DNA of 64,000 nucleotides. Origin: Escherichia phage SF. The stretch lies in the sequence record MH359124. The stretch is one strand, 5' to 3'. Below the pieces are notes generated by a model that had not been told where the DNA came from, ran no database searches, and worked only from the letters and a program-made list of their open reading frames with translations. A program made the translations under genes and the position numbers. Positions 12,631-58,587 of the stretch are shown one piece after another (position 1 is the first letter of the stretch; each line of letters starts with the position of its first letter).

Positions 12631-12657
12631 TGCATTTTTTCCTTATGTGATATAGAT

Positions 12658-12665
12658 TATTTATA
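12658..12665 (-). promoter_or_regulatory. late promoter TATAAATA for gp24
   Basis: TATTTATA on plus, 28 nt upstream of the gp24 start. Confidence 0.65.
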
Positions 12666-12671
12666 AAGATT

Positions 12672-12702
12672 GTTTACAACGTATTTGGTATGTGATACTA
12701 TA
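12672..12702 (+). promoter_or_regulatory. T4-type early promoter (GTTTAC -35, TACTAT -10) for ORF 12732
   Basis: tGTTTACaacgtatttggtatgtgaTACTATag; downstream leader almost identical to 49557..49595. Confidence 0.6.
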
Positions 12703-12731
12703 GACTTATCAACTACAGAGGAGTAAACAAA

Positions 12732-15485: not shown

Positions 15486-16127
15486 TTATAATGCTTTTAA
15501 ACTCTCTGCGAGAGCTTTAAATGCTTCATCAGCACTGTTTTTGGTGATTTCCACCGAATTTTCTGATTCTGATATTTGTTTAGGAGTAACCCAAGCATCT
15601 GGAGCAGAAGGTCCCCATACGGCATCTACGCCGACGGTTAATTTAAATCCTTCGTTCACGATACGGTACCCTTTATTGGTGTCGGTTAAAGAACCAAGAC
15701 CACGAGAGGAAACACCTGGAATCCAACCAGCTCGTATATTAGCAGCTAATTTATCGCCGGGACCATGGTCGCCTTCAATAATTCTAGCACGTCCATATAC
15801 ATCGTTTCCTTTCCACCACATATCTTCAATAATGATAGCGGCTTGCATAGGGTCAACATTTGCACGAGGTGGATGGTTTAATTCTCCAAGGGCTTGTTTG
15901 GTTACGACTTGTTCTTTAATATAGTCGCTTACCGCTTTTTCCAAAACGCGTTTAGGATATAAACGTTTATTTCGGTTAACAACCTCTGCTTGAAGAAAAA
16001 TACCTTCTATATAAAGCCCTGGTTTTAAGCCAGAATCTTTTCCATCATGAGATTCCAACATTGGAACGCCATCAATAATCTCACCTGGTTGACCCCAAGT
16101 TTCAATAAGTAACTCGGGTTTATTCAT
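15486..16127 (-). CDS. 21: gp21 prohead core protease
   Basis: 213-aa ORF, size and position match T4 gp21. Confidence 0.9.
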   Translation of the reverse strand: MNKPELLIETWGQPGEIIDGVPMLESHDGKDSGLKPGLYIEGIFLQAEVVNRNKRLYPKRVLEKAVSDYIKEQVVTKQALGELNHPPRANVDPMQAAIIIEDMWWKGNDVYGRARIIEGDHGPGDKLAANIRAGWIPGVSSRGLGSLTDTNKGYRIVNEGFKLTVGVDAVWGPSAPDAWVTPKQISESENSVEITKNSADEAFKALAESLKAL

Positions 16128-45070: not shown

Positions 45071-45082
45071 TTTTCAAAAACA

Positions 45083-45118
45083 GTTTACATAAGGATGATG
45101 GCGTGTTACTATCATCCT
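45083..45118 (+). promoter_or_regulatory. early promoter with stem-loop (PeSL-like) for the ipI-locus gene
   Basis: GTTTACA, then inverted repeat AGGATGAT...ATCATCCT enclosing TACTAT. Confidence 0.6.
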
Positions 45119-45146: not shown

Positions 45147-45458
45147 ATGAAAACCTATCAAGAGTTTATCGCTGAAGCTACTAAAGCCGATAAAAATTTT
45201 ATTATTAACACCACCGGTCCGTTAGATGATGAATACGCTAATGCTATTATTAAGTCAATTTCTAATCAAGGCGTTGAAGTAACAAATTTCGAATATAAGA
45301 AAAATGATACTTATATGATAATTAGTATCAAAAAAGGTTCAAAAGCCAAAATTAAATCCGCATTTGGTGTTATGCGAGTTGACCAAATCGATAACCACGA
45401 TTTTTCACAAACAGGGGCCAAACGCCAAAATACCATTTCTTCTAAAGGCATAAAATAA
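45147..45458 (+). CDS. internal protein (ipI locus) with capsid-targeting leader
   Basis: N-terminus MKTYQEFIAEA, the T4 internal-protein capsid targeting sequence; early promoter upstream; position adjacent to 57B. Confidence 0.8.
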   Translation: MKTYQEFIAEATKADKNFIINTTGPLDDEYANAIIKSISNQGVEVTNFEYKKNDTYMIISIKKGSKAKIKSAFGVMRVDQIDNHDFSQTGAKRQNTISSKGIK

Positions 45459-45494
45459 TTTACAACACGATAGGACTATGTTATAATAGTCCTA
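45459..45494 (+). promoter_or_regulatory. early promoter TTTACA-17-TATAAT embedded in a stem-loop (PeSL)
   Basis: aTTTACAacacgaTAGGACTAtgtTATAATAGTCCTAtc: -10 lies in the loop of an 8-bp inverted repeat. Confidence 0.7.
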
Positions 45495-45519
45495 TCAAAA
45501 CAACCAAATGGAACCTAAA

Positions 45520-45783
45520 ATGAAAACTTTCAACGAATTCATCTCAGAATCGTCTGGTGTGAAAATTAACAAAGCGGTCAATCAGGTTATTGCTGATATT
45601 CTTAATTTGTATAACATTGACTTAACTCCGCATATCACGCTTGGTAACAAACGAAACTTTTTCATATTTGACACATCCGAACTTGATGAAAATCAGTTCA
45701 ATAACATTCAACGTTTTGCGAATGATAAAGGTCTTCGACACGAGCCTGGCGGCTATAAAAAATACGCAATATATTTGAAATAA
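45520..45783 (+). CDS. internal-protein-like (CTS variant MKTFNEFISE)
   Basis: Start at ATG 45520; CTS-like N-terminus; PeSL-type promoter-stem-loop upstream. Confidence 0.65.
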   Translation: MKTFNEFISESSGVKINKAVNQVIADILNLYNIDLTPHITLGNKRNFFIFDTSELDENQFNNIQRFANDKGLRHEPGGYKKYAIYLK

Positions 45784-45852
45784 AGGTATACAAGCCTATA
45801 GGGATATGTTATAGTAGTCCTATCAAAACAAATGAGTAAATGGAGAAATAAA

Positions 45853-46038
45853 ATGAAACGCGCTGAACTGATTCGTAATGTTGCTATAGTAATTGCTTCA
45901 ATGGCTTTTAGTTTTTCGATGTTTGTAGGATTCATTTGTGGACTACTGACAACAACTGAAAACTCTATCTCATTGGTAGTAGCATTTCTAATCGGCTTAA
46001 TCGCTATCGTTATGGATAAAATTGCAAAAGGTGAGTAA
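45853..46038 (+). CDS. small membrane protein (2 predicted TM helices)
   Basis: Start at ATG 45853 with RBS GGAG; hydrophobic segments VAIVIASMAFSFSMFVGFICGLL and LVVAFLIGLIAIV. Confidence 0.5.
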   Translation: MKRAELIRNVAIVIASMAFSFSMFVGFICGLLTTTENSISLVVAFLIGLIAIVMDKIAKGE

Positions 46039-46039
46039 A

Positions 46040-46402
46040 ATGAAATATCATGTATATGCGGATTTTGAAGCAAATCCTTCTAAAGACCATGATTGTCGTT
46101 TGATACGCAGACCATTTGATTCAGCAGCTCAAGCATGGGCTTGGATTAAAACTTGTACTCCTTCTTACACTTTCTTTGAAGTGGTAGATGATAACGGTGT
46201 TCTACATCCAGAACCTACAGAAACTATTAATTTCCTTCTGTTTGCTGGTTACGACTGTTATCCTCTTGGCGGTATTGACGATCTTGTTGCTACAGGAAAA
46301 ACTGTTGAAGCTCTTCGTGAAATCTATAAAAATGCTGAAGAAAATTTTGACTGGTACCAGATTGTCAGTGCACATACTTTTGAAGTGGTGGAACACTCAT
46401 GA
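46040..46402 (+). CDS. hypothetical protein
   Basis: ATG 46040 with RBS GGTGAG; 120 aa; no recognisable motif. Confidence 0.6.
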   Translation: MKYHVYADFEANPSKDHDCRLIRRPFDSAAQAWAWIKTCTPSYTFFEVVDDNGVLHPEPTETINFLLFAGYDCYPLGGIDDLVATGKTVEALREIYKNAEENFDWYQIVSAHTFEVVEHS

Positions 46403-46689
46403 TTCTTTATGCTAAAGTAAAATCTGTCGAGAATGGATATGAAAGCGATCAACGTGCAGCTAAAGCACTAGTCGATGACTATGGTATTTTGACTAATTTT
46501 GAAGTTGAAAAGGTTTACATCGACCGTTCGTCTTCACAGGTTAAATTGCTCTGTGAAGATGATAAATTTAACACAGTTAACTTTGATTTCTTTATTGAAA
46601 CAGAAAAAGGCCCTCTTGAATATGATATTTTCAAGAATCCTTTGAAATTACGTTGCATTGAATATAATTACATTAATATGGTACGGTGA
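46399..46689 (+). CDS. hypothetical protein
   Basis: 96-aa ORF coupled to the upstream gene (ATGA overlap). Confidence 0.6.
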   Translation: MILYAKVKSVENGYESDQRAAKALVDDYGILTNFEVEKVYIDRSSSQVKLLCEDDKFNTVNFDFFIETEKGPLEYDIFKNPLKLRCIEYNYINMVR

Positions 46690-46693
46690 TTAA

Positions 46694-47209
46694 ATGAATA
46701 TTTGTTTAGGCAGTACAATTCCTAAAGGTTACGTAATTGATGTCACTACCTATGAAAGTGATGGCGACAATTATAAAACCAAAACATTGTTTGAAGTGGA
46801 AGAGCATGAGCTCCAACAGTTTAAATATCTCTTGAAGAAATTTAAGAGCCGTCATTCTAGCACCAAAGCCGAACGTTATTGCGGTAATACACCATTCGGT
46901 CGTTGTTCGCTTATTATCTACGAATATCTGGTTGAAGGACTGTTCTCAGACCAACTCCAACCGGAATTTATTAAAAAGGTCTTTGGCATCGAAGTAGACC
47001 TTGGTGATAAATCTGAAGAAGACGAAGCCCGCGTATTCGACCTGTTCTTTGTGAAAGGCGGTGAGATATCTCAAGGACTTATTTATATTCTTGGCTATGC
47101 TTCTGAATACTATGATTACGATTTCTTGCGTGTAGTTGAACGTGTCGAATTTGCTTATATTGAAGAAGAAATCGTTTTGCCAACCGTTAAAATGATTGAT
47201 TTGCTTTAA
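46694..47209 (+). CDS. hypothetical protein
   Basis: 171-aa ORF, acidic; no recognisable motif. Confidence 0.6.
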   Translation: MNICLGSTIPKGYVIDVTTYESDGDNYKTKTLFEVEEHELQQFKYLLKKFKSRHSSTKAERYCGNTPFGRCSLIIYEYLVEGLFSDQLQPEFIKKVFGIEVDLGDKSEEDEARVFDLFFVKGGEISQGLIYILGYASEYYDYDFLRVVERVEFAYIEEEIVLPTVKMIDLL

Positions 47210-47288
47210 GAATTATGTGTTATTATTAATTCATACCATCTATTACCAAAGGTGCTCTAAAGTGCCTTTCATAATAGAAAGTTATTTA

Positions 47289-47362
47289 GGCCCTGTAGCT
47301 CAACGGTTAGCAGCAGTCCCCTCATAAGGGAAAGGTTACCAGTTCGAATCTGGTCTGGGTCA
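47289..47362 (+). tRNA. tRNA with anticodon CAT (Met/Ile2 type)
   Basis: Manual cloverleaf: acceptor GGCCCTG/CTGGGTC (one mismatch), D-arm GCTC-AACGGTTAG-CAGC, anticodon loop CTCATAA, T-arm ACCAG-TTCGAAT-CTGGT; 6 nt before the next tRNA. Stems are imperfect. Confidence 0.6.
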
Positions 47363-47368
47363 TATATT

Positions 47369-47445
<77 letters not shown>

Positions 47446-47463
47446 ACTTTAAGTGAGGAAAAT

Positions 47464-47808
47464 ATGAAAGGCAACATTTATCTGGTAGTTCATGATTTAA
47501 CGTTTTATTTTAACGAATATGATACAGTTATTTCTCATCGATTGATTAATTCGCTGTATCAGCATGCCGATTACATCTATGTTCAAAATGAATTTGGTCA
47601 TTGGAAGTTCATTAAAAATCGTTCTGGGTTAACTAGTTTTGAATACTTTGACCGTAAAGACCTTTTAAACGAAATCCCATTGCAACATCGGTTCCAGAAA
47701 CGTGAATCATTATATTATTGCCGCCATATACCAAACGCCGAATGTGTTAATGAAGCGATTAATCTATGGCGTCGGCGTCGAGAGCAAATTGATGATATGC
47801 CAAAATAA
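47464..47808 (+). CDS. hypothetical protein
   Basis: ATG 47464 with strong RBS GAGGAA; 114 aa; the track ORF start at 47416 lies inside tRNA-Arg. Confidence 0.6.
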   Translation: MKGNIYLVVHDLTFYFNEYDTVISHRLINSLYQHADYIYVQNEFGHWKFIKNRSGLTSFEYFDRKDLLNEIPLQHRFQKRESLYYCRHIPNAECVNEAINLWRRRREQIDDMPK

Positions 47809-47959
47809 GAAGCCGGGTCGCTACCGGTAAGTCGTCGGACTGATGTTCCCTGCGTAAGGACTGGTCTTAAATAAATCTTTATGATTTGTTAATATCCCCT
47901 TACATCACAGCAGAAACGGCGCACAGAATTATCGATTCGAGGAAATATCTTTGCCGTAA

Positions 47960-48150
47960 GCCGAGTAGCGTTTTTGACGGAACGTTCGGATATGGTCGAG
48001 ATATGGCCTTTTAAAAATATTGAGTAGCGTCAACTGCTTAATAACCGGGTTCGAATCCCGGCGTTTCGTACAAACACTTGCCTTAGCAGGTGGAACCCCG
48101 ACAAGGTTGCCGCAAGGCATAGCCCCTTCCGAAAGGTTGGGGCTTTTTGG
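47960..48150 (+). ncRNA. candidate small stable RNA with tRNA-like T-arm and terminator (possibly analogous to T4 rnaC/rnaD)
   Basis: 385-bp ORF-free stretch next to the tRNAs; tRNA-like T-arm CCGGG-TTCGAAT-CCCGG (48045..48061) and pairing 7-nt acceptor-like strands; GC hairpin plus T-run at 48121..48148. Boundaries approximate. Confidence 0.35.
48121..48148 (+). terminator. rho-independent terminator (AGCCCC...GGGGCT plus TTTTT)
   Basis: agccccttccgaaaggttggggcttttt at the end of the ORF-free RNA region. Confidence 0.65.
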
Positions 48151-48193
48151 CATAATAATAAATAGATAAGTTAATTAACTTAGGAAAAGCAAA

Positions 48194-48658
48194 ATGAAAT
48201 CATACGCCGAATTTTTGACTGAACAATCTAGTTCAGATGTAAAAGCCGCTGCGATTGCAGCAATTCAAGCAGGTAAATATTCTTACAAAGACGCCTCTGA
48301 TGAAGAACGTTTCCGTTTTATTAGAGATTTTAAAGCCGAAGGTTTTACTAATGCTAATACTGTTAGCCGAGTTTTTAAAAGCCTAGCTGCATCAGGTGAA
48401 TTGTTCCAGAAAGCTACAGGTAAAGCACCTGCGCCAAAAGCGGACCCTAAAGCCGCTCAAGAAAAAAATATCGCCAAAGGAATTATTTCTAAGTATGAAG
48501 CAATTCTTAAAGAGCTTTTAGTAATCAAAACAGAAGGCCAGAAACTGGCACGAGCACATAGCTTCAAAGATAATCCTCACGCTCATAGCCTTGAGTATGT
48601 TGAAGATATCCAAAAACTTATTAAAGACCGTATCTGGTCTGCTAAACAAATTAAATAA
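48194..48658 (+). CDS. internal-protein-like (CTS variant MKSYAEFLTE), 154 aa
   Basis: CTS-like N-terminus; flanked by near-identical terminator hairpins. Confidence 0.7.
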   Translation: MKSYAEFLTEQSSSDVKAAAIAAIQAGKYSYKDASDEERFRFIRDFKAEGFTNANTVSRVFKSLAASGELFQKATGKAPAPKADPKAAQEKNIAKGIISKYEAILKELLVIKTEGQKLARAHSFKDNPHAHSLEYVEDIQKLIKDRIWSAKQIK

Positions 48659-48664
48659 TAGAAT

Positions 48665-48691
48665 GCCCCTTCCTTACGGTTGGGGCTTTTT
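48665..48691 (+). terminator. rho-independent terminator after IP gene 48194, near-copy of 48121..48148
   Basis: gccccttccttacggttggggcttttt. Confidence 0.65.
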
Positions 48692-48829
48692 GGTATCTAG
48701 GCCTTTCCGGGAATCTCTAGGCATCATTTAGTTTATACCCTTTATAATAATATATTATCCTACCTTTTAATTGCCTCTCTCTGCCCTAGAATTCCCCGGA
48801 ACTTTTTAAAAATTTTTTTTCACAAAACT

Positions 48830-48859
48830 GTTTACATCCCTGTTCTTCCGTGGTACTAT
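48830..48859 (+). promoter_or_regulatory. early promoter GTTTACA...TACTAT
   Basis: ctGTTTACAtccctgttcttccgtggTACTATac upstream of ORF 48902. Confidence 0.55.
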
Positions 48860-48901
48860 ACAACTATCAACTACCGATACAGAAAAAACTTGGAGAATGA
48901 A

Positions 48902-49165
48902 ATGGATAATTACGGCGAACTGTTCAACTTCTTTATGAAATGTGTTCCAGAAGATTTCGGACGTACGGTGAATGATATTAAAGTTATCGGTCCTGAACAC
49001 CCTGTGTATGAAACCTATGCAGTAATGGGTAATGAAGACGGACAGTGGTATACAATTAAAGTTGTGATTAATATGTTCTCGGCCGAAGGCTACGCCAAAT
49101 CGTCTACCAAAGTTTACCATGATAACGATTTTGATGCGGAAGATTATTTCAATAATATGAAATAA
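48902..49165 (+). CDS. hypothetical protein
   Basis: ATG 48902 with RBS GGAG; early promoter at about 48830..48859. Confidence 0.55.
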   Translation: MDNYGELFNFFMKCVPEDFGRTVNDIKVIGPEHPVYETYAVMGNEDGQWYTIKVVINMFSAEGYAKSSTKVYHDNDFDAEDYFNNMK

Positions 49166-49223
49166 ATGTGTACATGGGCTCATGATTAAGATATTATGAG
49201 CCCTATTAATGAGAAAGAATGTT

Positions 49224-49529
49224 ATGAGTCTTTATACTGAACTGAATAAAAAATCTGAAGAATCTGCTGAAACTATTTTTAAAAACGTGCAAAAGCGTAT
49301 TTTAGAAAAGATGTATAACACTGCAGCTAAAGGTGAAAAATCTTGCCGGTTTCCGATGAGGTGTTCTTCTGATTTATGCGCAAATACTATTGAATGGCTG
49401 GAAAGTGAAGGTCTTACGGTAGAGAAAAACCCGGCGACTTCTATTGACAGTGAATCATATATTAGTATTTCTTGGGATAAACCACGTATTAATGAAGGAC
49501 ACTACAAGTTGTTGAGTTGGAAAAATTAA
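49224..49529 (+). CDS. hypothetical protein
   Basis: ATG 49224 with RBS GAGAAAG. Confidence 0.55.
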   Translation: MSLYTELNKKSEESAETIFKNVQKRILEKMYNTAAKGEKSCRFPMRCSSDLCANTIEWLESEGLTVEKNPATSIDSESYISISWDKPRINEGHYKLLSWKN

Positions 49530-49537
49530 AATAATGA

Positions 49538-49566
49538 TGTACAAGCACCAAAGATGGTGATACTAT
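49538..49566 (+). promoter_or_regulatory. early promoter for ORF 49596 (leader duplicated at 12690..12731)
   Basis: tgatactatagacttatcaactacagaggag shared with the 12732 upstream region; -35 is TGTACA here. Confidence 0.55.
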
Positions 49567-49595
49567 AGACTTATCAACTACAGAGGAGAAACAAA

Positions 49596-49823
49596 ATGGC
49601 TACAGTTAGTATTGATGTCGTTGATTATGAATACACTGAAGAAGTTATTCGCAACCGTCACCCTGAAGTTCGTATCGATTCAGTCCAAGATTCCAAGTTC
49701 TGGACAACTGAGCTTAATCTGAGTGGTCCTTATGAAGCTGTTAAGAAGTTCATGGTTGAAGAATACTGTGAAGGCATGCACCCGGAAGACGCCGAGTTTT
49801 ATGTCAATTTGATTAAAAAATAA
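49596..49823 (+). CDS. hypothetical acidic protein (75 aa)
   Basis: RBS GAGGAG; promoter and leader nearly identical to the one upstream of 12732. Confidence 0.6.
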   Translation: MATVSIDVVDYEYTEEVIRNRHPEVRIDSVQDSKFWTTELNLSGPYEAVKKFMVEEYCEGMHPEDAEFYVNLIKK

Positions 49824-49893
49824 TTTACAAACTCTTGAGAGCAGAGTATAATGCTCTCATTGGATAATAAACCACCAATTGAAAGGTAATAAT

Positions 49894-50487
49894 ATGAACA
49901 CACTGAAGAAACTTGTTGAATTCATCCGCACTAAACTGGGTACTGCTATGGCTAAAAATCTAACTGTCGAAGAACAGTATAACGCAGCTGCAGATAAGTT
50001 GATTACCCAAATCAAAGAACTAAAAACGGCTTCTGTTAAATCTATTAATGAAGAAAAACGTATTCGCGAACTTGTTATTGAAAAGAATAAGCAAGCCGCT
50101 TCTAAGGAACGTGAAATTCGTAAGCTCCTGGCTGAAGGACAAGATGTTACCATGCATGCTAAGCTTGGTCTTCTGTATCGTCGAACTGCCGAACAACTTA
50201 ATACAAAAGCTGATGGGTATGCCGCTATGCGAATTGAAATTGCTCGTAAGGTGGTTGAACTTGACGACGCTCGTCAGAATCTGGCAATCAAACTCGAATA
50301 CATTCGTGAAACTCGAGCAGCTAATGCCCTTGGTATCTCTACGGCCGATGATGTAATTGAAATCGCTGCACTGACTAAGGTTGATATCGAAGACACTCTG
50401 ACTCGTGTTGAAACGTTCAATGGCACTCCAACCGGTGTCGAAACCACTTCTGCTGATGTACAAGAATATATTAACTCTTTGAAATAA
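49894..50487 (+). CDS. coiled-coil protein (possibly PspA/IM30-like; weak inference)
   Basis: ATG 49894 with RBS AAAGG; 198 aa, predominantly helical and charged heptad-like; hairpin terminator follows. Confidence 0.6.
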
Positions 50488-50495
50488 AATAATAC

Positions 50496-50517
50496 GGAGG
50501 ACTCCGGTCCTCCTTTT
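50496..50517 (+). terminator. rho-independent terminator after ORF 49894 (GGAGGAC-tccg-GTCCTCC plus TTTT)
   Basis: Perfect 7-bp stem and T-run. Confidence 0.65.
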
Positions 50518-50536
50518 GGATAATAAAGGAGTTAAC

Positions 50537-51133
50537 ATGCGAAACCAAAATAATGATATTGACTCGATGTTCGAAGAGTTCCGAAATAAGGTAAATCCAC
50601 CTACGTCTTTAGTTGATTCATTACGATATGTTGCAACTGGACGTAAATGGTACTGGTCGTCTTCTTATGAGACAACTGAATATGCAAATAACCGAAAATC
50701 TTTATTAGCCCCAGGTATTATGATTCATGATATCGGAGCTATTGCTAAACTAGTTGCAGACCATGATATTAGATTCACCGATTTCGTTGCTCCTACGTGG
50801 TCTGTTTGTTGTTTAAACACTGAATGGGAATATATCAGCGAACGCTCTGAAGATTATTATGGTTTTAGAGACAAGCTTTTAAGGTCTAACATGTTTTATA
50901 TTGATACAGAAGTTCTGGTCAATAATAAAAAATACTATTTCACTTTAATAGTCGATTCTGAAACTATGTATGAAGGCAAGCCTTTGCTTAAAAGAGTTGA
51001 TGCTTTAAGTGCTATTGATGCGCTTTATGAAACCATGGTTGTTAGTCCTAATTTCACTAACAATTTAATCCTTGAGCAATTTATTATGGAATGTAGAGAA
51101 TATGTCAAAGCCAACCCTATACATGCCAAGTAA
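50537..51133 (+). CDS. hypothetical protein (199 aa)
   Basis: ATG 50537 with RBS AAGGAG; C-terminal region contains the FIMECRE junction motif. Confidence 0.65.
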   Translation: MRNQNNDIDSMFEEFRNKVNPPTSLVDSLRYVATGRKWYWSSSYETTEYANNRKSLLAPGIMIHDIGAIAKLVADHDIRFTDFVAPTWSVCCLNTEWEYISERSEDYYGFRDKLLRSNMFYIDTEVLVNNKKYYFTLIVDSETMYEGKPLLKRVDALSAIDALYETMVVSPNFTNNLILEQFIMECREYVKANPIHAK

Positions 51134-51497
51134 GCCCTGGGCGTATGAATACAAGCGTAAATTAATCCCAAATGAAGTACTATTTGGCCCTATTTTAGCT
51201 TTAGCATTTTTAATCTTTATGATTATAGGAGCTGTTTTAGATTCTAGTGAAGTTATATCGTCTGATGCAGTGTTTTTACTTATTATAGTCGGGTCGTTTA
51301 TTGTACCATTTTTATTAATGCCTATTAACTGGGTAGGATATTGGCACCAAGGCCGTCATCACAGAGCCCGATTAAGAGAATGGAAAGTTCAGTGCGCAAA
51401 AGCCCAAGCTCAGTATGATGAAGCTGTTAAAAAGTACGAATATGAAGAAGCTATGGAATTCGTTAAGGAAATAAGATGCAAAAGCCTCAACTCTTAA
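51102..51497 (+). CDS. small membrane protein (2 TM), ECR-family paralog
   Basis: Start at 51102 (alternative 51123); TM segments ILALAFLIFMIIGAVL and VFLLIIVGSFIVPFLL; C-terminus EFVKEIRCK. Confidence 0.6.
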   Translation: MSKPTLYMPSKPWAYEYKRKLIPNEVLFGPILALAFLIFMIIGAVLDSSEVISSDAVFLLIIVGSFIVPFLLMPINWVGYWHQGRHHRARLREWKVQCAKAQAQYDEAVKKYEYEEAMEFVKEIRCKSLNS

Positions 51498-51835
51498 CCG
51501 TATGGCCTTCTCTTGGTGAGAACATTCTAATTTTTATTATGAGTATTGGCGTGGGATTTGCCTTTGGATTAGTTGGATTTCTTATTGACGGCGTTGTGTT
51601 AGGATTTATAGGGAACACTGGTGGATTCACAGACCAATGGCAGGACTTACGGTATACCCAAGCCTTTGCATCCATCGCATCATTTTGTACTGTAGTCTAT
51701 TTTTACTATGATTTTATAAACCATAACAAGAAAAATAAAAAGGTTTACGCTTCTCAAATGATTAGTTATAATGAACTCCTAGCTAGACGTGAAAATGAAA
51801 CAATAGAAAACTTTATTAAGGAATGTAGAAAATGA
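51476..51835 (+). CDS. small membrane protein (2 TM), ECR-family paralog
   Basis: TM segments; C-terminus ENFIKECRK; coupled to the downstream gene. Confidence 0.65.
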   Translation: MQKPQLLTVWPSLGENILIFIMSIGVGFAFGLVGFLIDGVVLGFIGNTGGFTDQWQDLRYTQAFASIASFCTVVYFYYDFINHNKKNKKVYASQMISYNELLARRENETIENFIKECRK

Positions 51836-52137
51836 GTAAGATTATTGAAATTAAAGTACCAGAGTTTAATGATGCCAAATCCGCTTCAGATGCAATTTAT
51901 AAACTTCTGAATCAAGCTGAACGTATCGAAGAAGAAGCAACAAAGATCGCAGACCAATATGCCGTATCATTTTCTGTAGGTGATTATGGTAGCGGTCGTA
52001 CTTATTATCCTAAGGGTGAAATCGTATCCCAGTGGATGAAAAATGAAATTGAAAATAATGGTGGCGATGTTAAGCGTGAAGGTAATGGTTACGTTATTAC
52101 TGAAGGTGCTTGGGTTTCGTCTTCTGCGTTGTGCTAA
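51832..52137 (+). CDS. small protein, member 1 of a tandem paralog triplet (C-terminus GAWVSSSALC)
   Basis: 101 aa; shares C-terminal G-W-[VI]-[SA]-S-S-x-x-C and upstream spacer GCTAAGGAA with the next two ORFs. Confidence 0.65.
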   Translation: MSKIIEIKVPEFNDAKSASDAIYKLLNQAERIEEEATKIADQYAVSFSVGDYGSGRTYYPKGEIVSQWMKNEIENNGGDVKREGNGYVITEGAWVSSSALC

Positions 52138-52146
52138 GGAACCACT

Positions 52147-52419
52147 ATGTCTAAAGAACAAACCGAACTGGCTGAAGCCGTAGCAAAAATCTATGCAGCT
52201 ATTGAGGCTGCCAAAGAAATTGCTGATAAACAAAACACAACATTCGACTTGTATCCAGCTTATGGTATGGGTGGAACATATCATTCACCCGGACAGCTTA
52301 AAGCCGATCTTGAACGTTGTACAAAAAACGGCTATGCTGAATGGGCTGACGTTTACCAATACGACTACAACCTGAGCCTCGAAACTGGTGGTTGGATCGC
52401 ATCTTCTCACACTTGCTAA
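52147..52419 (+). CDS. small protein, member 2 of the tandem paralog triplet (C-terminus GGWIASSHTC)
   Basis: 90 aa; conserved C-terminus and RBS context. Confidence 0.65.
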   Translation: MSKEQTELAEAVAKIYAAIEAAKEIADKQNTTFDLYPAYGMGGTYHSPGQLKADLERCTKNGYAEWADVYQYDYNLSLETGGWIASSHTC

Positions 52420-52428
52420 GGAAACCAT

Positions 52429-52626
52429 ATGTCTCGTGAATTAGATTGTGCTGTACGTACTGCAGTAGCTGCCCTGGAAAACCTGTTCCAAATTGCAACA
52501 GAAGAACGCGAAGAAGTTACATTATGGATTGAAGATAACGCAGGTCTGAATCTCCAGGACGCGATCTCATTATCCCACAATAGTATCACTGTTCAAGGCT
52601 GGGTATCGTCTAGTTATTCTTGCTAA
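52429..52626 (+). CDS. small protein, member 3 of the tandem paralog triplet (C-terminus QGWVSSSYSC)
   Basis: 65 aa; conserved C-terminus and RBS context. Confidence 0.65.
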   Translation: MSRELDCAVRTAVAALENLFQIATEEREEVTLWIEDNAGLNLQDAISLSHNSITVQGWVSSSYSC

Positions 52627-52630
52627 AACA

Positions 52631-52670
52631 GTTTACAACAAGATAGGGCTATGTTATAGTAGTCCTATCA
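52631..52670 (+). promoter_or_regulatory. early promoter with stem-loop (PeSL)
   Basis: GTTTACAacaagaTAGGGCTAtgtTATAGTAGTCCTAtc. Confidence 0.65.
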
Positions 52671-52688
52671 AATTAAATGGAGTCCACA

Positions 52689-52928
52689 ATGATTTATTAC
52701 GAAAGTATTGGAACCGAAGTGGTTGCTAAAACCATTACTCGTGAAAAGTTTGCAAAGATATTCGATATGCGTTATAAAAAATCTGAACACAAAGGCATTC
52801 GATTCGAAGATGCGCACTGTACAATTTGCCCTTATAATGAAGACATAAATGGTACAATCGTTCCATTGGTAGAGGCTTCACATGATGACCTCTGGGATGA
52901 ATATAATATCGCATGTCGCGAAATTTAA
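52689..52928 (+). CDS. hypothetical protein
   Basis: ATG 52689 with RBS GGAG; PeSL-type promoter upstream. Confidence 0.55.
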   Translation: MIYYESIGTEVVAKTITREKFAKIFDMRYKKSEHKGIRFEDAHCTICPYNEDINGTIVPLVEASHDDLWDEYNIACREI

Positions 52929-52953
52929 GTAATCTAAATTCGAGGAAATTATT

Positions 52954-53910
52954 ATGATGTTAGTTATTGGTTCTCGTGCACTTCACTATCATGGACTTAT
53001 TGATTCTAATGCTATCAAAAATAGTGACTGGGACTTTATTGCAGACCAAGGTTCTTGGAATGCATTCAAAAATCAAATGATGGGTGTATATGTTCATCAA
53101 GATAACCCTGATGTCCAAGTTTTCAAATGCTTCCATAATGGACGCGAAACTCATTTTGAAGCATATATTGTTCCGGCAATCACTAATGTCCGTGAATTAG
53201 TCGGTGAACTCACTCCTGAAGATTTCACATCTTCTTACGACCTTTTAAAATACGCCAAGAAAAATTTGACCAAAGACCGTTTGAACGGGTTTTACTGGGC
53301 AACTCCTGAGATATGTCTTGCAATTAAGATGTCTCATCGTTTCAAGAAAAATAATCCATTCTTTTTAAAGACTATGAACCATATTCAGTATCTTCGTGGT
53401 AAAGGTGTTACACTGAACGACGAACTTACTGAAATTATGCTGAAACGCCAGAAAGAAACCTTGAACTATGCTCACCCAGTTCTTGACACTTCTAAAAGTG
53501 CGTTCTTTAAAGATGACATCTATACATATGACCATGATACTATTCATGAAGCCATTGCACTAACAGACCGCCCGGCTTATACATTTTACATGAAAGATGG
53601 TTCTGAAGTCATGACCTCACGCGAGAAGTTTGAATCATTACCAGAAATGGTAAAATTGGCTGGTGTATACGAAGAATCATGTGTACTAGCATTAGAACGT
53701 TCTCAGATTCCTAACGACTTTAAAATTAACCCTGAAGCCAGTTTTATGATGGCATTGGAAAAAGTCTGTACAAGCATCACCTCTGGTTGGTTCCGTGAGT
53801 ATGCCTGGGAAAACTATAGCAAAGTAGTAAGTATGTACCAAAGCTTAGGACATGATGATTACGTCAAACGTTTCAAACAAAATTTCCATATGGTAAAACC
53901 TTTCAAATAA
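52954..53910 (+). CDS. 318-aa protein with putative Pol-beta-type nucleotidyltransferase motif
   Basis: RBS GAGGAA; N-terminus MMLVIGSRALHYHGLIDSNAIKNSDWDFIA fits h-G-S...D-x-D, with a possible third carboxylate in HFEAYIV. Motif-level inference only. Confidence 0.7.
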   Translation: MMLVIGSRALHYHGLIDSNAIKNSDWDFIADQGSWNAFKNQMMGVYVHQDNPDVQVFKCFHNGRETHFEAYIVPAITNVRELVGELTPEDFTSSYDLLKYAKKNLTKDRLNGFYWATPEICLAIKMSHRFKKNNPFFLKTMNHIQYLRGKGVTLNDELTEIMLKRQKETLNYAHPVLDTSKSAFFKDDIYTYDHDTIHEAIALTDRPAYTFYMKDGSEVMTSREKFESLPEMVKLAGVYEESCVLALERSQIPNDFKINPEASFMMALEKVCTSITSGWFREYAWENYSKVVSMYQSLGHDDYVKRFKQNFHMVKPFK

Positions 53911-53922
53911 CTTCACAAAACT

Positions 53923-53962
53923 GTTTACATAATTATAGGGACTATGTTATAGTAGTCCTATT
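53923..53962 (+). promoter_or_regulatory. early promoter with stem-loop (PeSL)
   Basis: GTTTACAtaattaTAGGGACTAtgtTATAGTAGTCCTAtt. Confidence 0.65.
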
Positions 53963-53981
53963 AAAACATGAGGAGAATATT

Positions 53982-54287
53982 ATGAAATTAACAGAAACCA
54001 ATCGAATCGGTCTTTTAACAATATTTGCATCACCTTTTTACGCAGCTCTTTCTGTTGCAGTATTACAAAAGGCCTACGATATGGATGGAGTTACTGGTTT
54101 TGTATTCTTATCGCCGTTTTTGCTATTCGTTGGAGCATTGTTATTATACGCCACGACTAGTTTCGACCATAATGTCTGGGTCAATTATAAATGTAAATTG
54201 TCTGAAGAAGAACACGCAGAAGCTCGTAAAAAAGCTATTGAATCTACCAATCTAGAAAATTTCATTAAAGAATGTCGAGGAAAATAA
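53982..54287 (+). CDS. small membrane protein (2 TM), ECR-family paralog
   Basis: RBS GAGGAG; TM segments; C-terminus ENFIKECRGK. Confidence 0.65.
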   Translation: MKLTETNRIGLLTIFASPFYAALSVAVLQKAYDMDGVTGFVFLSPFLLFVGALLLYATTSFDHNVWVNYKCKLSEEEHAEARKKAIESTNLENFIKECRGK

Positions 54288-54288
54288 T

Positions 54289-54975
54289 ATGAATAGTTCT
54301 AAAGTGTTTAATAGTCAAGCTCGTGCAGTAGGTGGTTTTGCTCATGCGATTAAAAACGAGCAGATTAAAAACGAGCCTATGTTCTTTAACTGCGATTTGA
54401 ATTTTGCTTTTGATAATGGCGGTCCAATTACTCGTAGCTTTATCCAAAATCTTCCTGACGATTGGAAAGACTCGGATGTAGTATTTGATTCACGAGTCCA
54501 CATGCTGATGCCTGGTTGGTATCCTGCTATTCCTGGATATCACCATGATGATGTTCCTCGCCCTGATATTCCAGTTGGTCAACACTTTATTACTGCAGGA
54601 CAACCTGATTATGACAATCCTCGCTATTTGTCTGAACATATTCTTGGTCTTGTTAACGCTGATGTGTGTCCTACTCATTTTGCAACAGGAGCTGCAGAGT
54701 TCAGTCAGATTCCTGATGGCGAACTTATCTATCGCCAGTGGCACAAAGAAGTCCTCGAAAAAATTGAAAAAGGCGAACTAGAGAAATGGGAAGCTCCAGA
54801 TCGTACTCTTCTTCAGTTTGATTGGCAAACATGGCACACTGGTTCTCGTGCAATTAGTAATGGATGGCGTTGGTTCGGACGTGTATCTCGTAATACAGGC
54901 CGAGTTAAAAAGATTACCAATGAAATTCGTGTCAATGCTCAAGTTTATCTGGAATTCCCTATGGAAGGCTGGTAA
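54289..54975 (+). CDS. 228-aa His/Asp/Trp-rich protein (possible metal-binding enzyme)
   Basis: RBS GAGGAA; motifs PGYHHDD and CPTHF; no confident family assignment. Confidence 0.65.
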   Translation: MNSSKVFNSQARAVGGFAHAIKNEQIKNEPMFFNCDLNFAFDNGGPITRSFIQNLPDDWKDSDVVFDSRVHMLMPGWYPAIPGYHHDDVPRPDIPVGQHFITAGQPDYDNPRYLSEHILGLVNADVCPTHFATGAAEFSQIPDGELIYRQWHKEVLEKIEKGELEKWEAPDRTLLQFDWQTWHTGSRAISNGWRWFGRVSRNTGRVKKITNEIRVNAQVYLEFPMEGW

Positions 54976-55466
54976 TGATACATAAAATTCACTGGACAAA
55001 CATGGACGATGGCGACGAAGGTATTTCATATTATTCTATAGATTGGACAGGATGTCCATCCTACTTAGTGAAACATATTTGCCAAGAATTTAAAATCGAC
55101 CAGCCAGCAGGTATTATCGTGAACAGATACATTAATGGATATCAACCTATCGATGAAGTAATACGAACAACTCAAGCTGAGCTTGAAAGGTTTTTCAATA
55201 AGTGTCAATGGATAACAGGATGGATTATATTTGTACCGTCTATATGGTTTTTCAGTACTAAGGTGAGTTCTTTCGGTTTTGTTGATATTATTGCTATCTT
55301 ATTAGCATCTAGTATCATAAGTGTTGTTGGTGGCATCATTGGCGGCGGTACCGCCGCCATCATTATTAATCTTATTAAAAGTAGTTTACAAGAACATAAA
55401 GACAAGATAAAGGCCAAGAATAATGAAGTTGAACGTTTTATTACCGAATGCAGGAATTTGAGATGA
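54975..55466 (+). CDS. membrane protein with N-terminal soluble domain and 2 TM, ECR-family paralog
   Basis: C-terminus ERFITECRNLR; TM segments WIIFVPSIWFF and IIAILLASSIISVVGGIIGG; ATGA coupling. Confidence 0.65.
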   Translation: MIHKIHWTNMDDGDEGISYYSIDWTGCPSYLVKHICQEFKIDQPAGIIVNRYINGYQPIDEVIRTTQAELERFFNKCQWITGWIIFVPSIWFFSTKVSSFGFVDIIAILLASSIISVVGGIIGGGTAAIIINLIKSSLQEHKDKIKAKNNEVERFITECRNLR

Positions 55467-55699
55467 GTATAGCAATTTACATTAAATCAGAATCATGTGA
55501 TTCTTATCTGTACACATACGATAAAGATGTGTCAGAAGAAAAAATCAAAGACGACCTTAATATGGACCTTGATTTGTTCCGTCCTATTTCAGATTACAAA
55601 CTAGCATTCTCCGATAGCGAGCGTCCTGATAAAGAAACTCGCATTGAAGAATTTATGTCCGAATTAATGGCCAAATCATGGGACCGAGATGATGAGTAA
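55463..55699 (+). CDS. hypothetical acidic protein
   Basis: ATG 55463 with RBS AGGAA, overlapping the upstream stop; alternative start 55448. Confidence 0.5.
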   Translation: MSIAIYIKSESCDSYLYTYDKDVSEEKIKDDLNMDLDLFRPISDYKLAFSDSERPDKETRIEEFMSELMAKSWDRDDE

Positions 55700-56147
55700 G
55701 AAAAATAAAGTGAAAGAACTATCAGCCGGTATTATTTTCATGACAAAAGATAAAGAGTTATTCATGGGCCGTGTGACTGGTTCTCGTCCTAAAGGTTCTT
55801 TAACTCATCGGTGGGATATTCCTAAAGGCCGTGTCGAACCTGGCGAATCTCCTATTGAAGCCGCTATTCGTGAATGCGAAGAAGAAACTGGGTTTACACA
55901 ATATGACCCTGCCTTCCTGAAAGACCTAGGTGAACATCATTACTCAGACAATAAGAATATTCATCTGTTCCTATATACCATCCCTGTAGAGCACGAGCAA
56001 TTCAGAAACAGTGTTTGTAATTCCTATCATACATTCCCAGACGGACGACAGATTCCTGAATTTGATGCATTCGCTTTAATTAAACCTTCTCAATGGGAAT
56101 ATGTAATGGGCAAATCATTATATAAGGTGCTCACTACCCTCCTATAA
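55689..56147 (+). CDS. nudE: NudE Nudix hydrolase
   Basis: Nudix box GRVEPGESPIEAAIRECEEETGF; 152 aa; directly upstream of e, as T4 nudE (e.1). Confidence 0.88.
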   Translation: MMSKKNKVKELSAGIIFMTKDKELFMGRVTGSRPKGSLTHRWDIPKGRVEPGESPIEAAIRECEEETGFTQYDPAFLKDLGEHHYSDNKNIHLFLYTIPVEHEQFRNSVCNSYHTFPDGRQIPEFDAFALIKPSQWEYVMGKSLYKVLTTLL

Positions 56148-56181
56148 GTAATAAATACCTCCTATAAACGTGGGAGGTATT

Positions 56182-56670
56182 ATGAATATATTTGAAATGC
56201 TTCGTAATGACGAAGGTCTTAGACTGACTTTATACAAAGACACTGAAGGCTTTTGGACGATTGGCATAGGCCATTTAGTAGCAAAGAACCCATCTTTAGC
56301 CGTAGCTAAAGCTGAACTTGACAGAATGATCGGACGTAAATGCGACGGTACAATTACCCTTGATGAGGCTGAAAAGCTATTTAATGAAGACGTTGATAAA
56401 GCTGTTCGCGGAATCTTGGGTAATGCTAAACTTAAACCGGTATATGATTCTTTAGATGCAGTTCGTCGATGTGCGTTGGTCAATATGGTCTTCCAAATGG
56501 GTGTAGCAGGCGTCGCTGGTTTTACTAATTCTCTTCGTATGCTTCAACAGAAACGTTGGGACGAAGCGGCAGTAAATCTAGCCCAATCTAAATGGTATCG
56601 TCAGACACCTAATCGCGCGAAACGCGTAATCTCAACATTTAAAACAGGAACTTGGAAAGCGTATATATGA
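56182..56670 (+). CDS. e: lysozyme (endolysin e)
   Basis: [32 protein letters not shown]...[19 protein letters not shown]...[16 protein letters not shown], near-identical to T4 lysozyme; RBS GGGAGG. Confidence 0.97.
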
Positions 56671-56948
56671 AAACATATAGTGAATTTTTATCAGAATCTA
56701 TTCTTAACGAAGCTACTGACACCTTTGCAACTAAGCTAGGTGCAGCTTTGGTTGAAGCCGAAAGTCTATTAGCACGTATTTCTGAACTTGCTAGTAAGAT
56801 AGATACTCGCAAATTTGAACGTACAAGCGATATCGTTAAGCTTGAAGCCTTGTTGCGTATGTGCGATAAACCGGAAGAAATCGCCAAGAACGGTTCGCTG
56901 ATGAAACAACGTCTTGAAAAATATATTTCAGGCGCTTCAGAAAAATAG
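56667..56948 (+). CDS. internal-protein-like ([14 protein letters not shown]), 93 aa
   Basis: CTS leader; ATGA coupling to e; at the T4 ipIII position. Confidence 0.7.
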
Positions 56949-56949
56949 T

Positions 56950-56999
56950 GTTTACTTCCTCCAAGGGTTTTGATACTATACATTCATCAACTACTTGGA
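56950..56999 (+). promoter_or_regulatory. early promoter for denV with inverted repeat enclosing -10 and RBS
   Basis: GTTTACttCCTCCAAGggttttgaTACTATacattcatcaactaCTTGGAGGaa. Confidence 0.65.
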
Positions 57000-57006
57000 G
57001 GAAATT

Positions 57007-57420
57007 ATGACTCGTATCAATTTAACACTTGTTTCTGAACTGACCGACCAACATCTTATGGCTGAGTATCGTGAATTACCACGCGTATTTGGTGCAGTCC
57101 GTAAACATGTTCAAAACGGTAAACGTGTAAAGGATTTTAAAATCTCTCCAACATTTATCTTAGGCACAGGTCACGTAACATTCTTTTACGACAAACTCGA
57201 ATTTTTACGTTTACGTCAAATCGAGCTAATCGCTGAATGCTTGAAACGTGGTTTCAAAATCAAGGACACAACTGTCCAGGATATTTCCGACATCCCTGCC
57301 GAATTTCGTAATAATTATATCCCGACTGAAGCGTCCATTGCGATAAGTCAAGCACGCTTAGACGAAAAAATTGCCCAACGTCCTACTTGGTACAAATACT
57401 ATGGTAAATCAATTTACTAA
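57007..57420 (+). CDS. denV: DenV endonuclease V (pyrimidine dimer DNA glycosylase)
   Basis: [34 protein letters not shown]...[22 protein letters not shown], matching T4 DenV (138 aa); early promoter upstream. Confidence 0.95.
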
Positions 57421-57451
57421 GGAAAAAGGTGGCGATGGTAAAGCTTAAACA

Positions 57452-57481
57452 GTTTACGCTTAAGTATTAATATGGTATAAT
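57452..57481 (+). promoter_or_regulatory. early promoter GTTTAC-18-TATAAT for the ipII-like gene
   Basis: aGTTTACgcttaagtattaatatggTATAATtac. Confidence 0.65.
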
Positions 57482-57511
57482 TACTCTATCAAAACAAACA
57501 AGGAAACAAAA

Positions 57512-57814
57512 ATGAAAACATATCAAGAATTTATTACCGAAGCGCGAGTGAGTGCAGGTAAATTAGAAGCCGCTATAAATAAAAAGGCCCATTCATTTCA
57601 CGATTTGTCCGATAAAGACCGTAAGAAACTTGTAAGCCTTTATATTGACAAAGAGCGTATTCTCGCTCTTCCTGGCGCTAATGAAGGTAAACAGGCCAAG
57701 CCTTTGAATGCTGTCGAAAAGAAAATTGATAACTTTGCTTCTAAATTCGGTATGTCTATGGATGACCTTCAGCAAGCGGCTATCGAAGCAGCTAAAGTAA
57801 TTAAAGGTAAATAA
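57512..57814 (+). CDS. ipII: internal protein (ipII-like, 100 aa)
   Basis: MKTYQEFITEA CTS; 100 aa matches T4 IPII length; early promoter upstream. Identity as IPII versus another IP is uncertain. Confidence 0.7.
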   Translation: MKTYQEFITEARVSAGKLEAAINKKAHSFHDLSDKDRKKLVSLYIDKERILALPGANEGKQAKPLNAVEKKIDNFASKFGMSMDDLQQAAIEAAKVIKGK

Positions 57815-57816
57815 CA

Positions 57817-57846
57817 GTTTACTTTCTCCTAGAATTGTGATAGTAT
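57817..57846 (+). promoter_or_regulatory. early promoter upstream of a long structured leader and IP gene 58086
   Basis: GTTTACtttctcctagaattgtgaTAGTATattc; transcript would traverse repeat copy A. Confidence 0.55.
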
Positions 57847-57984
57847 ATTCATAATTACTTGGAGAGGTAAAATGACTCAATGAAAAAATTTTAATGAAGC
57901 CACACTGGTATAAGTATTAAGGCAAAAATATTTACATTCAAATAACATGGGAACAAGCTGGACCTCATGATTCTATGAGGGATT

Positions 57985-58085
57985 CCCGCCAACCTGTAAT
58001 AAGGTCGAGCCCAAGTGCGGTAATGGGTAATACAGAAATGGACAATTCGCGTGCCATGGAATGGCACAAACCTAGAGAGAACAAA
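57985..58085 (+). repeat. direct repeat copy A (~100 bp) immediately upstream of IP gene 58086
   Basis: ccaacctgtaataaggtcgagc[c/g]caa..tgcggtaatgggt...cgtgcca.ggaatggc.caa...agagaa...aaATG shared with copy B; internal hairpin GTGCCA-tggaa-TGGCAC. Confidence 0.7.
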
Positions 58086-58415
58086 ATGAAAACATATCAA
58101 GAGTTTATCACTGAAGTTACATTATCTGCGGAACAGAAAGCTGCTATCGAAGAAGGTAAAAATCCCAAAGTAACATATAAAGTAAATAGTAAAGGCGTTT
58201 TTGATGGCTTGGTTCAAGACCCTGAATTGAAAAAAGCTCTTTCTAAAACTAATGCGTACTTTGCTCCTAAATTTAACACAGCCGGTGTACTTATTGGATT
58301 GGATGTATTCAACTCTAAAGGTGTTCTATCTAATGCCTTTGGTTATGCCGCTAACAAAATTACTAAAGCCGCATGGGAATCCAATACCAAACAAGCTCAA
58401 AAGCCTAGAGTATAA
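58086..58415 (+). CDS. internal-protein-like (CTS MKTYQEFITEV), 109 aa
   Basis: CTS leader at the internal ATG of ORF 57975..58415; flanked by paired ~100-bp direct repeats. Confidence 0.75.
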   Translation: MKTYQEFITEVTLSAEQKAAIEEGKNPKVTYKVNSKGVFDGLVQDPELKKALSKTNAYFAPKFNTAGVLIGLDVFNSKGVLSNAFGYAANKITKAAWESNTKQAQKPRV

Positions 58416-58475
58416 TTCTTGCCTAATAAAGGGAAACGCAACCTCTCCTTATGAACGTCGAGTCCTCTGAGTGAT

Positions 58476-58587
58476 GTACCTTTTCCAACCTGTAATAAGG
58501 TCGAGCGCAATGCGGTAATGGGTTTACATAGCGAGTCGAAGGACATAACACGTGCCACGGAATGGCCCAACCTAAAAGAGAAACTAA
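58476..58587 (+). repeat. direct repeat copy B (~110 bp) immediately upstream of ORF 58588
   Basis: Same motif as copy A with small indels; hairpin GCCA-cggaa-TGGC shows compensatory changes. Confidence 0.7.

Follow-up and report, generated by a model that had tools for sequence, protein, structure and literature searches.

What are the six genes between positions 45,147 and 58,415 in Escherichia phage SF (sequence record MH359124), whose products start almost alike and then go separate ways, and what might they do for the phage? The window, meaning the whole stretch of that record that was analyzed, is 64,000 nucleotides long, and its plus strand has 6 open reading frames (ORFs) starting MK[TS][YF]x[ED]F[IL]xE, after which the bodies diverge completely. 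It is probable that all six encode "internal proteins" of the T-even kind. They are called below by their start positions, and are listed here with their predicted products, a slash marking the predicted cut and pI standing for the isoelectric point of the mature protein.

45147-45458, plus strand: Ip7-like internal protein, 103 residues, MKTYQEFIAE/A, pI 9.5
45520-45783, plus strand: Ip9-like internal protein, 87 residues, MKTFNEFISE/S, pI 9.0
48194-48658, plus strand: leader-bearing protein of family phrog_2280, 154 residues, MKSYAEFLTE/Q, pI 9.6
56667-56948, plus strand: internal protein, RB69ORF127c ortholog, 93 residues, FLSE at leader positions 7-10 and then /S, pI 6.3
57512-57814, plus strand: Ip2, 100 residues, MKTYQEFITE/A, pI 9.7
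58086-58415, plus strand: leader-bearing protein, RB69ORF123c ortholog, family phrog_3966, 109 residues, MKTYQEFITE/V, pI 9.7

An earlier reading made from the letters alone (the sequence-only reading) had described these ORFs as sharing a leader and then diverging, and the coordinates and N-termini are as it gave them. Scanned in all six frames with the strict pattern MK[TS][YFW]x[ED]F[ILVM]xE and one looser pattern, the whole window shows no further leader match beyond the six ORFs, and 100 shuffles of the window give 0 matches against 6 observed. The six-fold occurrence far exceeds chance. The mechanical ORF list does offer upstream starts for 3 of the genes (ATG 45508, TTG 56652, ATG 57975), and it is the MK(T/S) starts that follow a common ribosome-binding context, AAGGAAA..AAAATG, and that are conserved in relatives. 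A 100%-identical GenBank copy exists for every one of the genes, and within each family identity is 97-100% across dozens of phages. The explanation that the shared N-termini are a coincidence or an annotation artefact has next to no probability, being refuted by the shuffles and by conservation of the motif in hundreds of phage genomes. In all-against-all BLASTP, pairwise similarity is mostly confined to residues 1-10/15, a few pairs being weakly similar, at most, as far as residue ~43 (best E ~10−5). Because the similarity is N-terminal only, and at most weak to residue ~43, the bodies are unrelated as far as sequence comparison can tell.

The next point is what the leader does. In T4 IPIII the first 10 residues are sufficient for packaging, including of foreign proteins, and mutagenesis assigns positions 4 and 7 to targeting and positions 8 and 10 to cleavage by gp21 (PMC9026906). 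Asp at position 10 of the T4 leader blocks cleavage and leaves targeting intact (PMC9026906; PMC9958956). In every leader of the window position 4 is Y or F and position 7 is F. All six also have the gp21 processing motif of I or L at 8 and E at 10, reading FIAE, FISE, FLTE, FLSE, FITE, and FITE in map order, and 56667 has an additional LNE/A site at residues 13-15. Thus, the alignment of N-termini that the sequence-only reading had proposed gives the gp21 cleavage context I/L-x-E at residues 8-10 in each leader. The head genes lie on the minus strand in the left half of the window (gp20 portal, gp21, gp22, gp23, and gp24), 2 of them being those on which the leader depends.

15486-16127, minus strand: gp21 prohead protease, the expected leader-removing enzyme (Pfam Peptidase_S77, E = 3 × 10−107)
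14640-15452, minus strand: gp22 scaffolding core protein, the structure that the leader targets (Pfam T4_CASP, E = 2 × 10−89)

The I/L-x-E motif is also found at the T4 cut sites of gp24 (LRE/S, residues 8-10), gp23 (LTE/A, residues 64-66), and gp21 (LIE/T, residues 7-9). Since the head protease and scaffold genes are both in the window, the machinery for reading and removing the leader is encoded by the same phage. With the 4 key residues present in every leader and gp21 and gp22 at hand, the identification of the leader with the T4 capsid-targeting sequence is borne out.

The course of events that we propose is the following. Each protein would be made with a 10-residue N-terminal capsid-targeting sequence that would dock it on the gp22 scaffolding core during prohead assembly. 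There gp21 would cut after Glu10 of I/L-x-E, and the small, mostly basic product would remain beside the DNA inside the head; the predicted mature proteins have 77-144 residues, and 5 of the 6 are basic (pI 9.0-9.7), 56667 being near neutral. At infection the mature protein would enter the cell with the genome, acting before phage gene expression, and would most likely bind and block a host nuclease that recognizes sugar-modified cytosines, a type IV enzyme of the GmrSD/BrxU or McrBC kind. Going by the sequences, we think it likely that these proteins are packaged and injected.

Placement of the genes can be judged against related genomes. The region is ~95% identical over 90-92% of its length to the RB69-like Mosigvirus phages TH58, ST2, phiE142, and RB69, and by this similarity the phage is a Mosigvirus, an RB69-like T-even. 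The plus-strand order is gene 1 (deoxynucleoside monophosphate kinase), 57A, 57B, 45147, 45520, tRNA.4-.2 homologs, tRNA-Met, and tRNA-Arg, continuing with 48194, the e.8-e.2 block, nudE, lysozyme e, 56667, denV, 57512, 58086, and vs.8. The classical ip loci, 57B-tRNA and e-denV-vs.8, hold 5 of the 6 genes. The sixth, 48194, is just downstream of the tRNA cluster, a site where RB69 has another leader-bearing ORF (ORF149c). The start codon of 56667 overlaps the stop codon of e (ATGA).

Gene by gene, the most definite identity is that of 57512. It is identical to T4 IpII at 81 of 86 positions over residues 1-86 (94%), with the last 14 residues different, and it falls in phrog_7857 (E = 5 × 10−55). 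Copies 100% identical to it are in many phage records, several deposited as ipII or internal protein II. By this match 57512 is Ip2, ortholog of the T4 inhibitor of GmrSD-ECOR21/BrxU, the inhibition being shown for T4 Ip2 only. The sequence-only reading had treated the proteins as unassigned, which stands for 5 of them and falls for 57512. It had also allowed that the bodies could prove to be exactly those of IPI, IPII, or IPIII, and that is partly the case for 57512. IpI and IpIII bodies are absent from the six, to which BLASTP matches them in the leader only.

For 45147, the RB69 ortholog is RB69ORF156c at 96% identity, and the family is phrog_2667, labeled "internal head protein" (E = 2 × 10−38). 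It is 68% identical to a protein deposited as Ip7, is found in 280 phage records, and is 100% identical in Shigella phage JK42. Its neighbor 45520 occupies the slot of the RB69 IpI homolog. This Ip7-like and Ip9-like pair has full-length homology to the named Ip7 and Ip9 prototypes, the Ip numbering resting on GenBank and UniRef names. In 56667 we have the same gene as RB69ORF127c, with the leader intact here; it belongs to phrog_3499 "internal head protein" (E = 1 × 10−46; 495 records) and is 48% identical to bas37_0261 of phage Bas37.

The remaining 2 families have not been named as internal proteins. 48194 matches phrog_2280 "unknown function" (E = 1 × 10−53) with 510 phage records, and is "hypothetical" in every annotated record among those listed. 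Its AlphaFold2 model, with a predicted local distance difference test (pLDDT) score of 73.8, has a 3-helix N-domain, a disordered K/P/A linker, and a C-terminal helical hairpin. Homologs start MLEYSEFLKE in Tegunavirus, MKSYAQFLNE(A/V)VLNE/A in Tequatrovirus, and MKTYNEFLMTE.. in a further relative. 58086, 98% identical to its ortholog RB69ORF123c, matches phrog_3966 "unknown function" (E = 3 × 10−32) with 89 records, mostly Mosigvirus; among those listed it is "hypothetical" in nearly all and an internal protein in none. The homolog in Dhakavirus AnYang keeps MKTYQEFITE on a body of 37% identity, and adjoins annotated internal proteins just after denV. In both families, the leader is kept while the bodies fall to 37-55% identity. 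On these sequence grounds phrog_2280 and phrog_3966 should be annotated as putative internal proteins, to join the 4 of 6 families that PHROGs already labels as internal head or virion protein.

Pfam and NCBIfam scans of the six proteins give nothing above threshold, and PDB sequence searches with Ip2, 48194, and 45520 give no match. By word-indexed and exhaustive protein searches the families are small and phage-restricted (2-17 clusters each, and 10 representatives in the case of the Ip9-like body), and the same searches find no bacterial homologs hinting at a target.

What would such proteins do on arrival? Each of the T4 proteins Ip1, Ip2, and Ip3 inhibits a type IV enzyme of its own, of the GmrSD type and highly diverged from the others, and gives no cross-protection; the enzymes are GmrSD-CT596, GmrSD-ECOR21/BrxU, and GmrSD-ECOR17, respectively (PMC12373910). 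The description of IPI as a known anti-restriction effector is thereby correct, Ip1 being the inhibitor of a GmrSD enzyme. A further leader-bearing protein, Bas37_0260 of an ipI locus, blocks McrBC (bioRxiv 10.1101/2025.11.20.689424). Hence all 4 leader-bearing proteins with a known target (Ip1, Ip2, Ip3, and Bas37_0260) inhibit type IV restriction enzymes (PMC12373910; bioRxiv 10.1101/2025.11.20.689424), and "candidate injected effectors," the term used in the sequence-only reading, is a fair one. Mosigvirus DNA has 5-arabinosyl-hydroxy-cytosine and is cleaved by the GmrSD-family enzyme BrxU (PMC13390438), so type IV restriction is a real threat to this phage. By analogy, the 5 unassigned proteins most likely serve as pre-delivered inhibitors too. 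We put it at somewhat better than even that at least some of them are anti-defence effectors, and rather doubt that their targets lie specifically in the GmrSD family.

Several observations weigh against packaged and injected inhibitors. A literature search found no virion proteomics for these Mosigvirus proteins, and their packaging, cleavage, and ejection are inferred. The mature 56667 is not basic, with its pI of 6.3. The residue after the cut is unusual in 2 of the 6 proteins, Gln in 48194 and Val in 58086, where T4 Ip1-3 have Ala. Fold searches yield no functional lead. None of the prototypes Ip4-Ip10, among them Ip7 and Ip9, reproducibly inhibited the GmrSD variants that were tried (Supplementary Fig. 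9, PMC12373910), and therefore the Ip7-like and Ip9-like proteins may have their targets elsewhere. Lastly, as weak evidence, the perfect late promoter TATAAATA is found directly upstream of none of the six genes. That test is non-discriminating because the proven T4 ipII and ipIII also have no TATAAATA directly upstream; they have the same early-promoter arrangement, with TATAAATA in that T4 locus before e only. In the window, near-consensus late promoters (TATAAGTAATAAATA) stand before e at 56143-56157.

The promoters that are found are of the T4 early type, strong and directly upstream of 45147, 45520, and 57512 together with a conserved 5′ leader, and the T4 ipIII promoter region has a match at 57815-57870, upstream of 58086.

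45084-45112, plus strand: early-type promoter TTTACA-17-TACTAT with a stem-loop around the -10, directly upstream of 45147 (repeat families D2, D3, and D5)
45459-45487, plus strand: early-type promoter TTTACA-17-TATAAT, TG-extended, with a stem-loop, upstream of 45520
57453-57481, plus strand: early-type promoter TTTACG-17-TATAAT, TG-extended, upstream of Ip2

These signals raise the alternative that some of the proteins, especially 48194 and 58086, are ordinary early cytoplasmic proteins, the leader being kept mainly as a portable DNA module for promoter, ribosome binding, and recombination. The early promoters in place of canonical late ones would suit that, as would the Gln and Val after the cut, the recombination breakpoints against RB69 that fall in leader DNA, and the conservation of the leader DNA itself with little synonymous variation within the window. 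IPIII, moreover, is active in the cytoplasm in trans without its leader (PMC9391042), and degenerate leaders are tolerated in RB69. Of the 7 leader-type ORFs there, 2 have damaged leaders: ORF127c (RB69 12555-12836) has a -1/+1 frameshift pair spanning 22 nucleotides and its leader now reads MKTYMNFYQNLSLNE, and ORF123c (RB69 13980-14309) has E10A. The damage is either real decay or a matter of 2003 sequence errors. Yet the proven T4 internal proteins have the same early promoters, and what is kept in divergent relatives is the amino-acid pattern, through changes of nucleotides and residues (MLEYSEFLKE, MKSFKEYLTE, MKFNEFLTE). Residues 4, 7, 8, and 10 are kept in all 6 leaders, and in T4 the first 10 residues alone package foreign proteins (PMC9026906). 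We therefore give the DNA-module explanation only a small chance, and keep to targeting of the proteins into the head.

The breakpoints themselves show how the genes come and go. Homology to RB69 runs up to 45546, which is leader codon 9 of 45520, and resumes at 45786 right past the stop codon; by this comparison the Ip9-like body has replaced the RB69 IpI-like body. Likewise, the promoter and leader of 57512 are 94% identical to those of RB69ORF124c, homology ends at 57541 (leader codon 10), and the Ip2 body has replaced the ORF124c body; ORF125c is absent. Around 48194, whose body is absent from RB69, homology breaks at 48148 and resumes at 48642, and the cassette is flanked by a direct repeat of a terminator-like hairpin.

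48122-48153, plus strand: terminator-like hairpin (GCCCCTTCCGAAAGGTTGGGGCTTTTTGG), left copy of the repeat (family D11)
48665-48696, plus strand: terminator-like hairpin, right copy, 88% identical to the left (family D11)

Early promoter and stem-loop repeats (families D2, D3, and D5) flank small accessory genes at 45072, 45473, 45801, 48819, 52646, 53939, and 57467, coinciding with breakpoints against RB69. TH58 has 5 of the window's 6 genes, lacking the Ip7-like one, so that with RB69, TH58, and the window differing in gene content, each relative has its own cassette set. Since RB69 homology ends exactly with the leader codons, the genes are, on this comparison, swappable cassettes. The homology needed to swap bodies would come from shared promoter and leader DNA on the left side and, on the right, from repeated elements that are promoters or terminators.

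Some further observations touch these cassettes. The Escherichia phage OLB35 "ip7 protein" (P0027, 77 residues) is a natural chimera of an Ip7-like N-terminal part and the last ~33 Ip9-like residues, consistent with a deletion between adjacent ip7 and ip9 genes arranged as they are in the window. An element of ~110 nucleotides occurs twice on the plus strand (57975-58085 and 58470-58587), directly before the ATG of 58086 and that of vs.8, with only the vs.8 copy in RB69. Cassette insertion probably left it behind as a duplicated 5′ region. As a regulatory RNA it was rejected, its structure not being significant (z = -0.3 and +1.3). Rfam gives no match to it. Between the ORF150c-like gene and 48194, plus-strand positions 47815-48155 are GC-rich, non-coding, and fold better than shuffles (z = -4.0). 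They have a tRNA-like T-arm (CCGGGTTCGAATCCCGG) inside and a terminator hairpin at the end, with no tRNA call by ARAGORN or Rfam, and could be either a decayed tRNA or a stable small RNA of the T4 rnaC/rnaD kind. In the intergenic stretches near 48194 and 58086, Rfam finds two tRNAs and nothing else.

The Ip9-like body has a distribution of its own. Searching with the leaderless body by tblastn and exhaustive HMMER gave the 10 representatives, counted at 50% clustering, and some are in phages without a T4-type head core. Kagunavirus Bas70 (2507-2725) encodes a leaderless 72-residue protein of 58% identity, the gene heading a rightward block of small genes divergent from regulator and helicase-primase genes. 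Seuratvirus KS_S4 (2492-2716) has a leaderless 74-residue version at 45% identity. In Kuttervirus (pertopsoe_86, ~1990-2231) the domain is near the C-terminus of a 755-861-residue protein, encoded beside structural genes, at 31% identity. In phrog_7673 the leaderless proteins align only to the part of the profile that starts at position 19-25. The AlphaFold2 model of 45520 (pLDDT 88.8) has a compact alpha-beta-beta-alpha-beta-beta body preceded by a floppy leader helix, and on that account the T-even protein looks like a tag and short linker grafted onto a free-standing module. Leaderless Ip9-like genes are deposited as "internal head protein" in 2 of the 3 phages, and for the siphoviruses that label is probably a mis-transferred annotation carried by homology. 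The module may have 3 delivery modes: T-even phages would carry it as head cargo, Kagunavirus and Seuratvirus would open an early operon with a leaderless gene for it, and in Kuttervirus it would be part of a large protein. If true, the T-even leader would be a tag grafted onto existing cytoplasmic inhibitors to give them a head start.

This distribution bears on another explanation, that the proteins are packaged without having a target, as generic basic core or counter-ion proteins that aid scaffold assembly and DNA neutralization or condensation, their diversity being neutral drift in dispensable genes. It would fit the basic pI of 9.0-9.7 in 5 of 6, the ~360 copies of each T4 internal protein and their dispensability for assembly (PMC9958956), the Ip4-10 results with GmrSD (PMC12373910), and the lack of a domain or fold match indicating function. 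However, the 4 characterized leader-bearing proteins are all highly specific inhibitors with no cross-protection, and bodies are exchanged as whole cassettes instead of drifting. Identity of 97-100% per family across dozens of phages implies selection on the body, and a head-filling protein would have no reason to occur as a leaderless early gene in siphoviruses, which lack a T4-type head core. The head-filling explanation is accordingly improbable, and pre-delivered inhibition is the role we prefer. In its most specific form the proposal would be that the 5 unassigned proteins are a pre-loaded, cassette-swappable arsenal tuned to arabinosyl-hydroxy-cytosine DNA, with at least one blocking a non-GmrSD target, such as a McrBC-like nuclease or a DNA glycosylase acting on sugar-modified cytosines, and the Ip9-like body as a portable anti-defence module; as a joint claim this is possible, and on balance unlikely.

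Between the ip loci there are other small accessory genes on the plus strand. Three tandem paralogous ORFs (51832-52137, 52147-52419, and 52429-52626, with 101, 90, and 65 residues) have a common C-terminal W-[VI]-[SA]-S-S-x-x-C-stop, and their gene junctions are also repeated (family D8). Four hydrophobic ORFs (51072-51497, 51476-51835, 53982-54287, and 54975-55466; repeat family D19) have a common C-terminal F-[IV]-[KT]-E-C-R, as in ENFIKECRK, ENFIKECRGK, and ERFITECRNLR, and their RB69 counterparts are annotated as predicted membrane proteins of the e.2/e.3/e.4 type. Amid these are larger conserved ORFs at 52954-53910 and 54289-54975 (318 and 228 residues), orthologs of RB69ORF134c and ORF132c.

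Leader-tagged internal proteins are an established, textbook T-even feature, an idea in print since 1994, to which the window adds no new principle, and the injected-effector hypothesis is already under experimental work in the literature. The additions are modest: two "hypothetical" families as putative internal proteins, base-precise breakpoints at the leader end, and the distribution of the leaderless Ip9-like body. Their meaning lies in internal proteins being first responders, on hand in the cell by the time the DNA arrives. The 4 with known targets all disarm restriction enzymes that attack modified phage DNA, and the set carried therefore helps determine which strains can be infected, which is relevant to the choice and engineering of therapeutic T-even phages. 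For a phage with arabinosylated DNA, the window yields a test list, namely the 5 leader-bearing proteins that have no assignment.

Among known systems, promoter-early stem-loop (PeSL) cassettes were reportedly described by Arbiol et al. in 2010 in hyperplastic regions of T4-type phages. The repeated early promoter and stem-loop units of the window are alike in flanking small accessory genes at RB69 breakpoints, whereas the left homology of the window's ip genes reaches into the coding sequence and takes in the leader codons, and the repeats flanking 48194 are terminator hairpins, not promoters. Other pre-packaged anti-defence or take-over proteins are T4 Alt, P1 DarA/DarB, and the ejection proteins of giant phages, whose propeptides a protease removes (for example SPN3US, PMC5694885). 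They are similarly loaded into the head, cut there by the prohead protease, and sent in along with the DNA to act before gene expression, but are far larger proteins with other targeting signals and no sequence relationship. Polymorphic T-even ip genes (Ip4-Ip13) have been known since Repoila, Tetart, Bouet & Krisch (EMBO J 1994, as cited in PMC9026906 and PMC12373910). Compared with those prototypes the window genes are Mosigvirus alleles at ~70% identity, and 48194 and 58086 are outside the ipI locus with no Ip name among the records listed. Bas37 was confirmed to be KarlGJung, a Tequatrovirus, and its ipI locus was read directly. Bas37_0260 shares the leader MKTYQEFIAE and the two-gene layout of the ipI locus, and its neighbor bas37_0261 is the 56667 homolog, whereas its body has no homolog in the window; as a candidate there, this McrBC inhibitor was rejected when BLASTP matched the leader only and tblastn with the body gave no match in the window. 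The closest comparison is with T4. The DNA is arabinosylated in the window phage and glucosylated in T4, no window body resembles IpI or IpIII, the last 14 residues of Ip2 differ, and the order e-56667-denV-Ip2-58086-vs.8 contrasts with e-ipIII-ipII-denV-vs.8. The two share the 10-residue leader with its key residues, the loci, the protease and scaffold genes, small predicted mature proteins (basic in 5 of the 6 here), and, in 57512, Ip2 itself.

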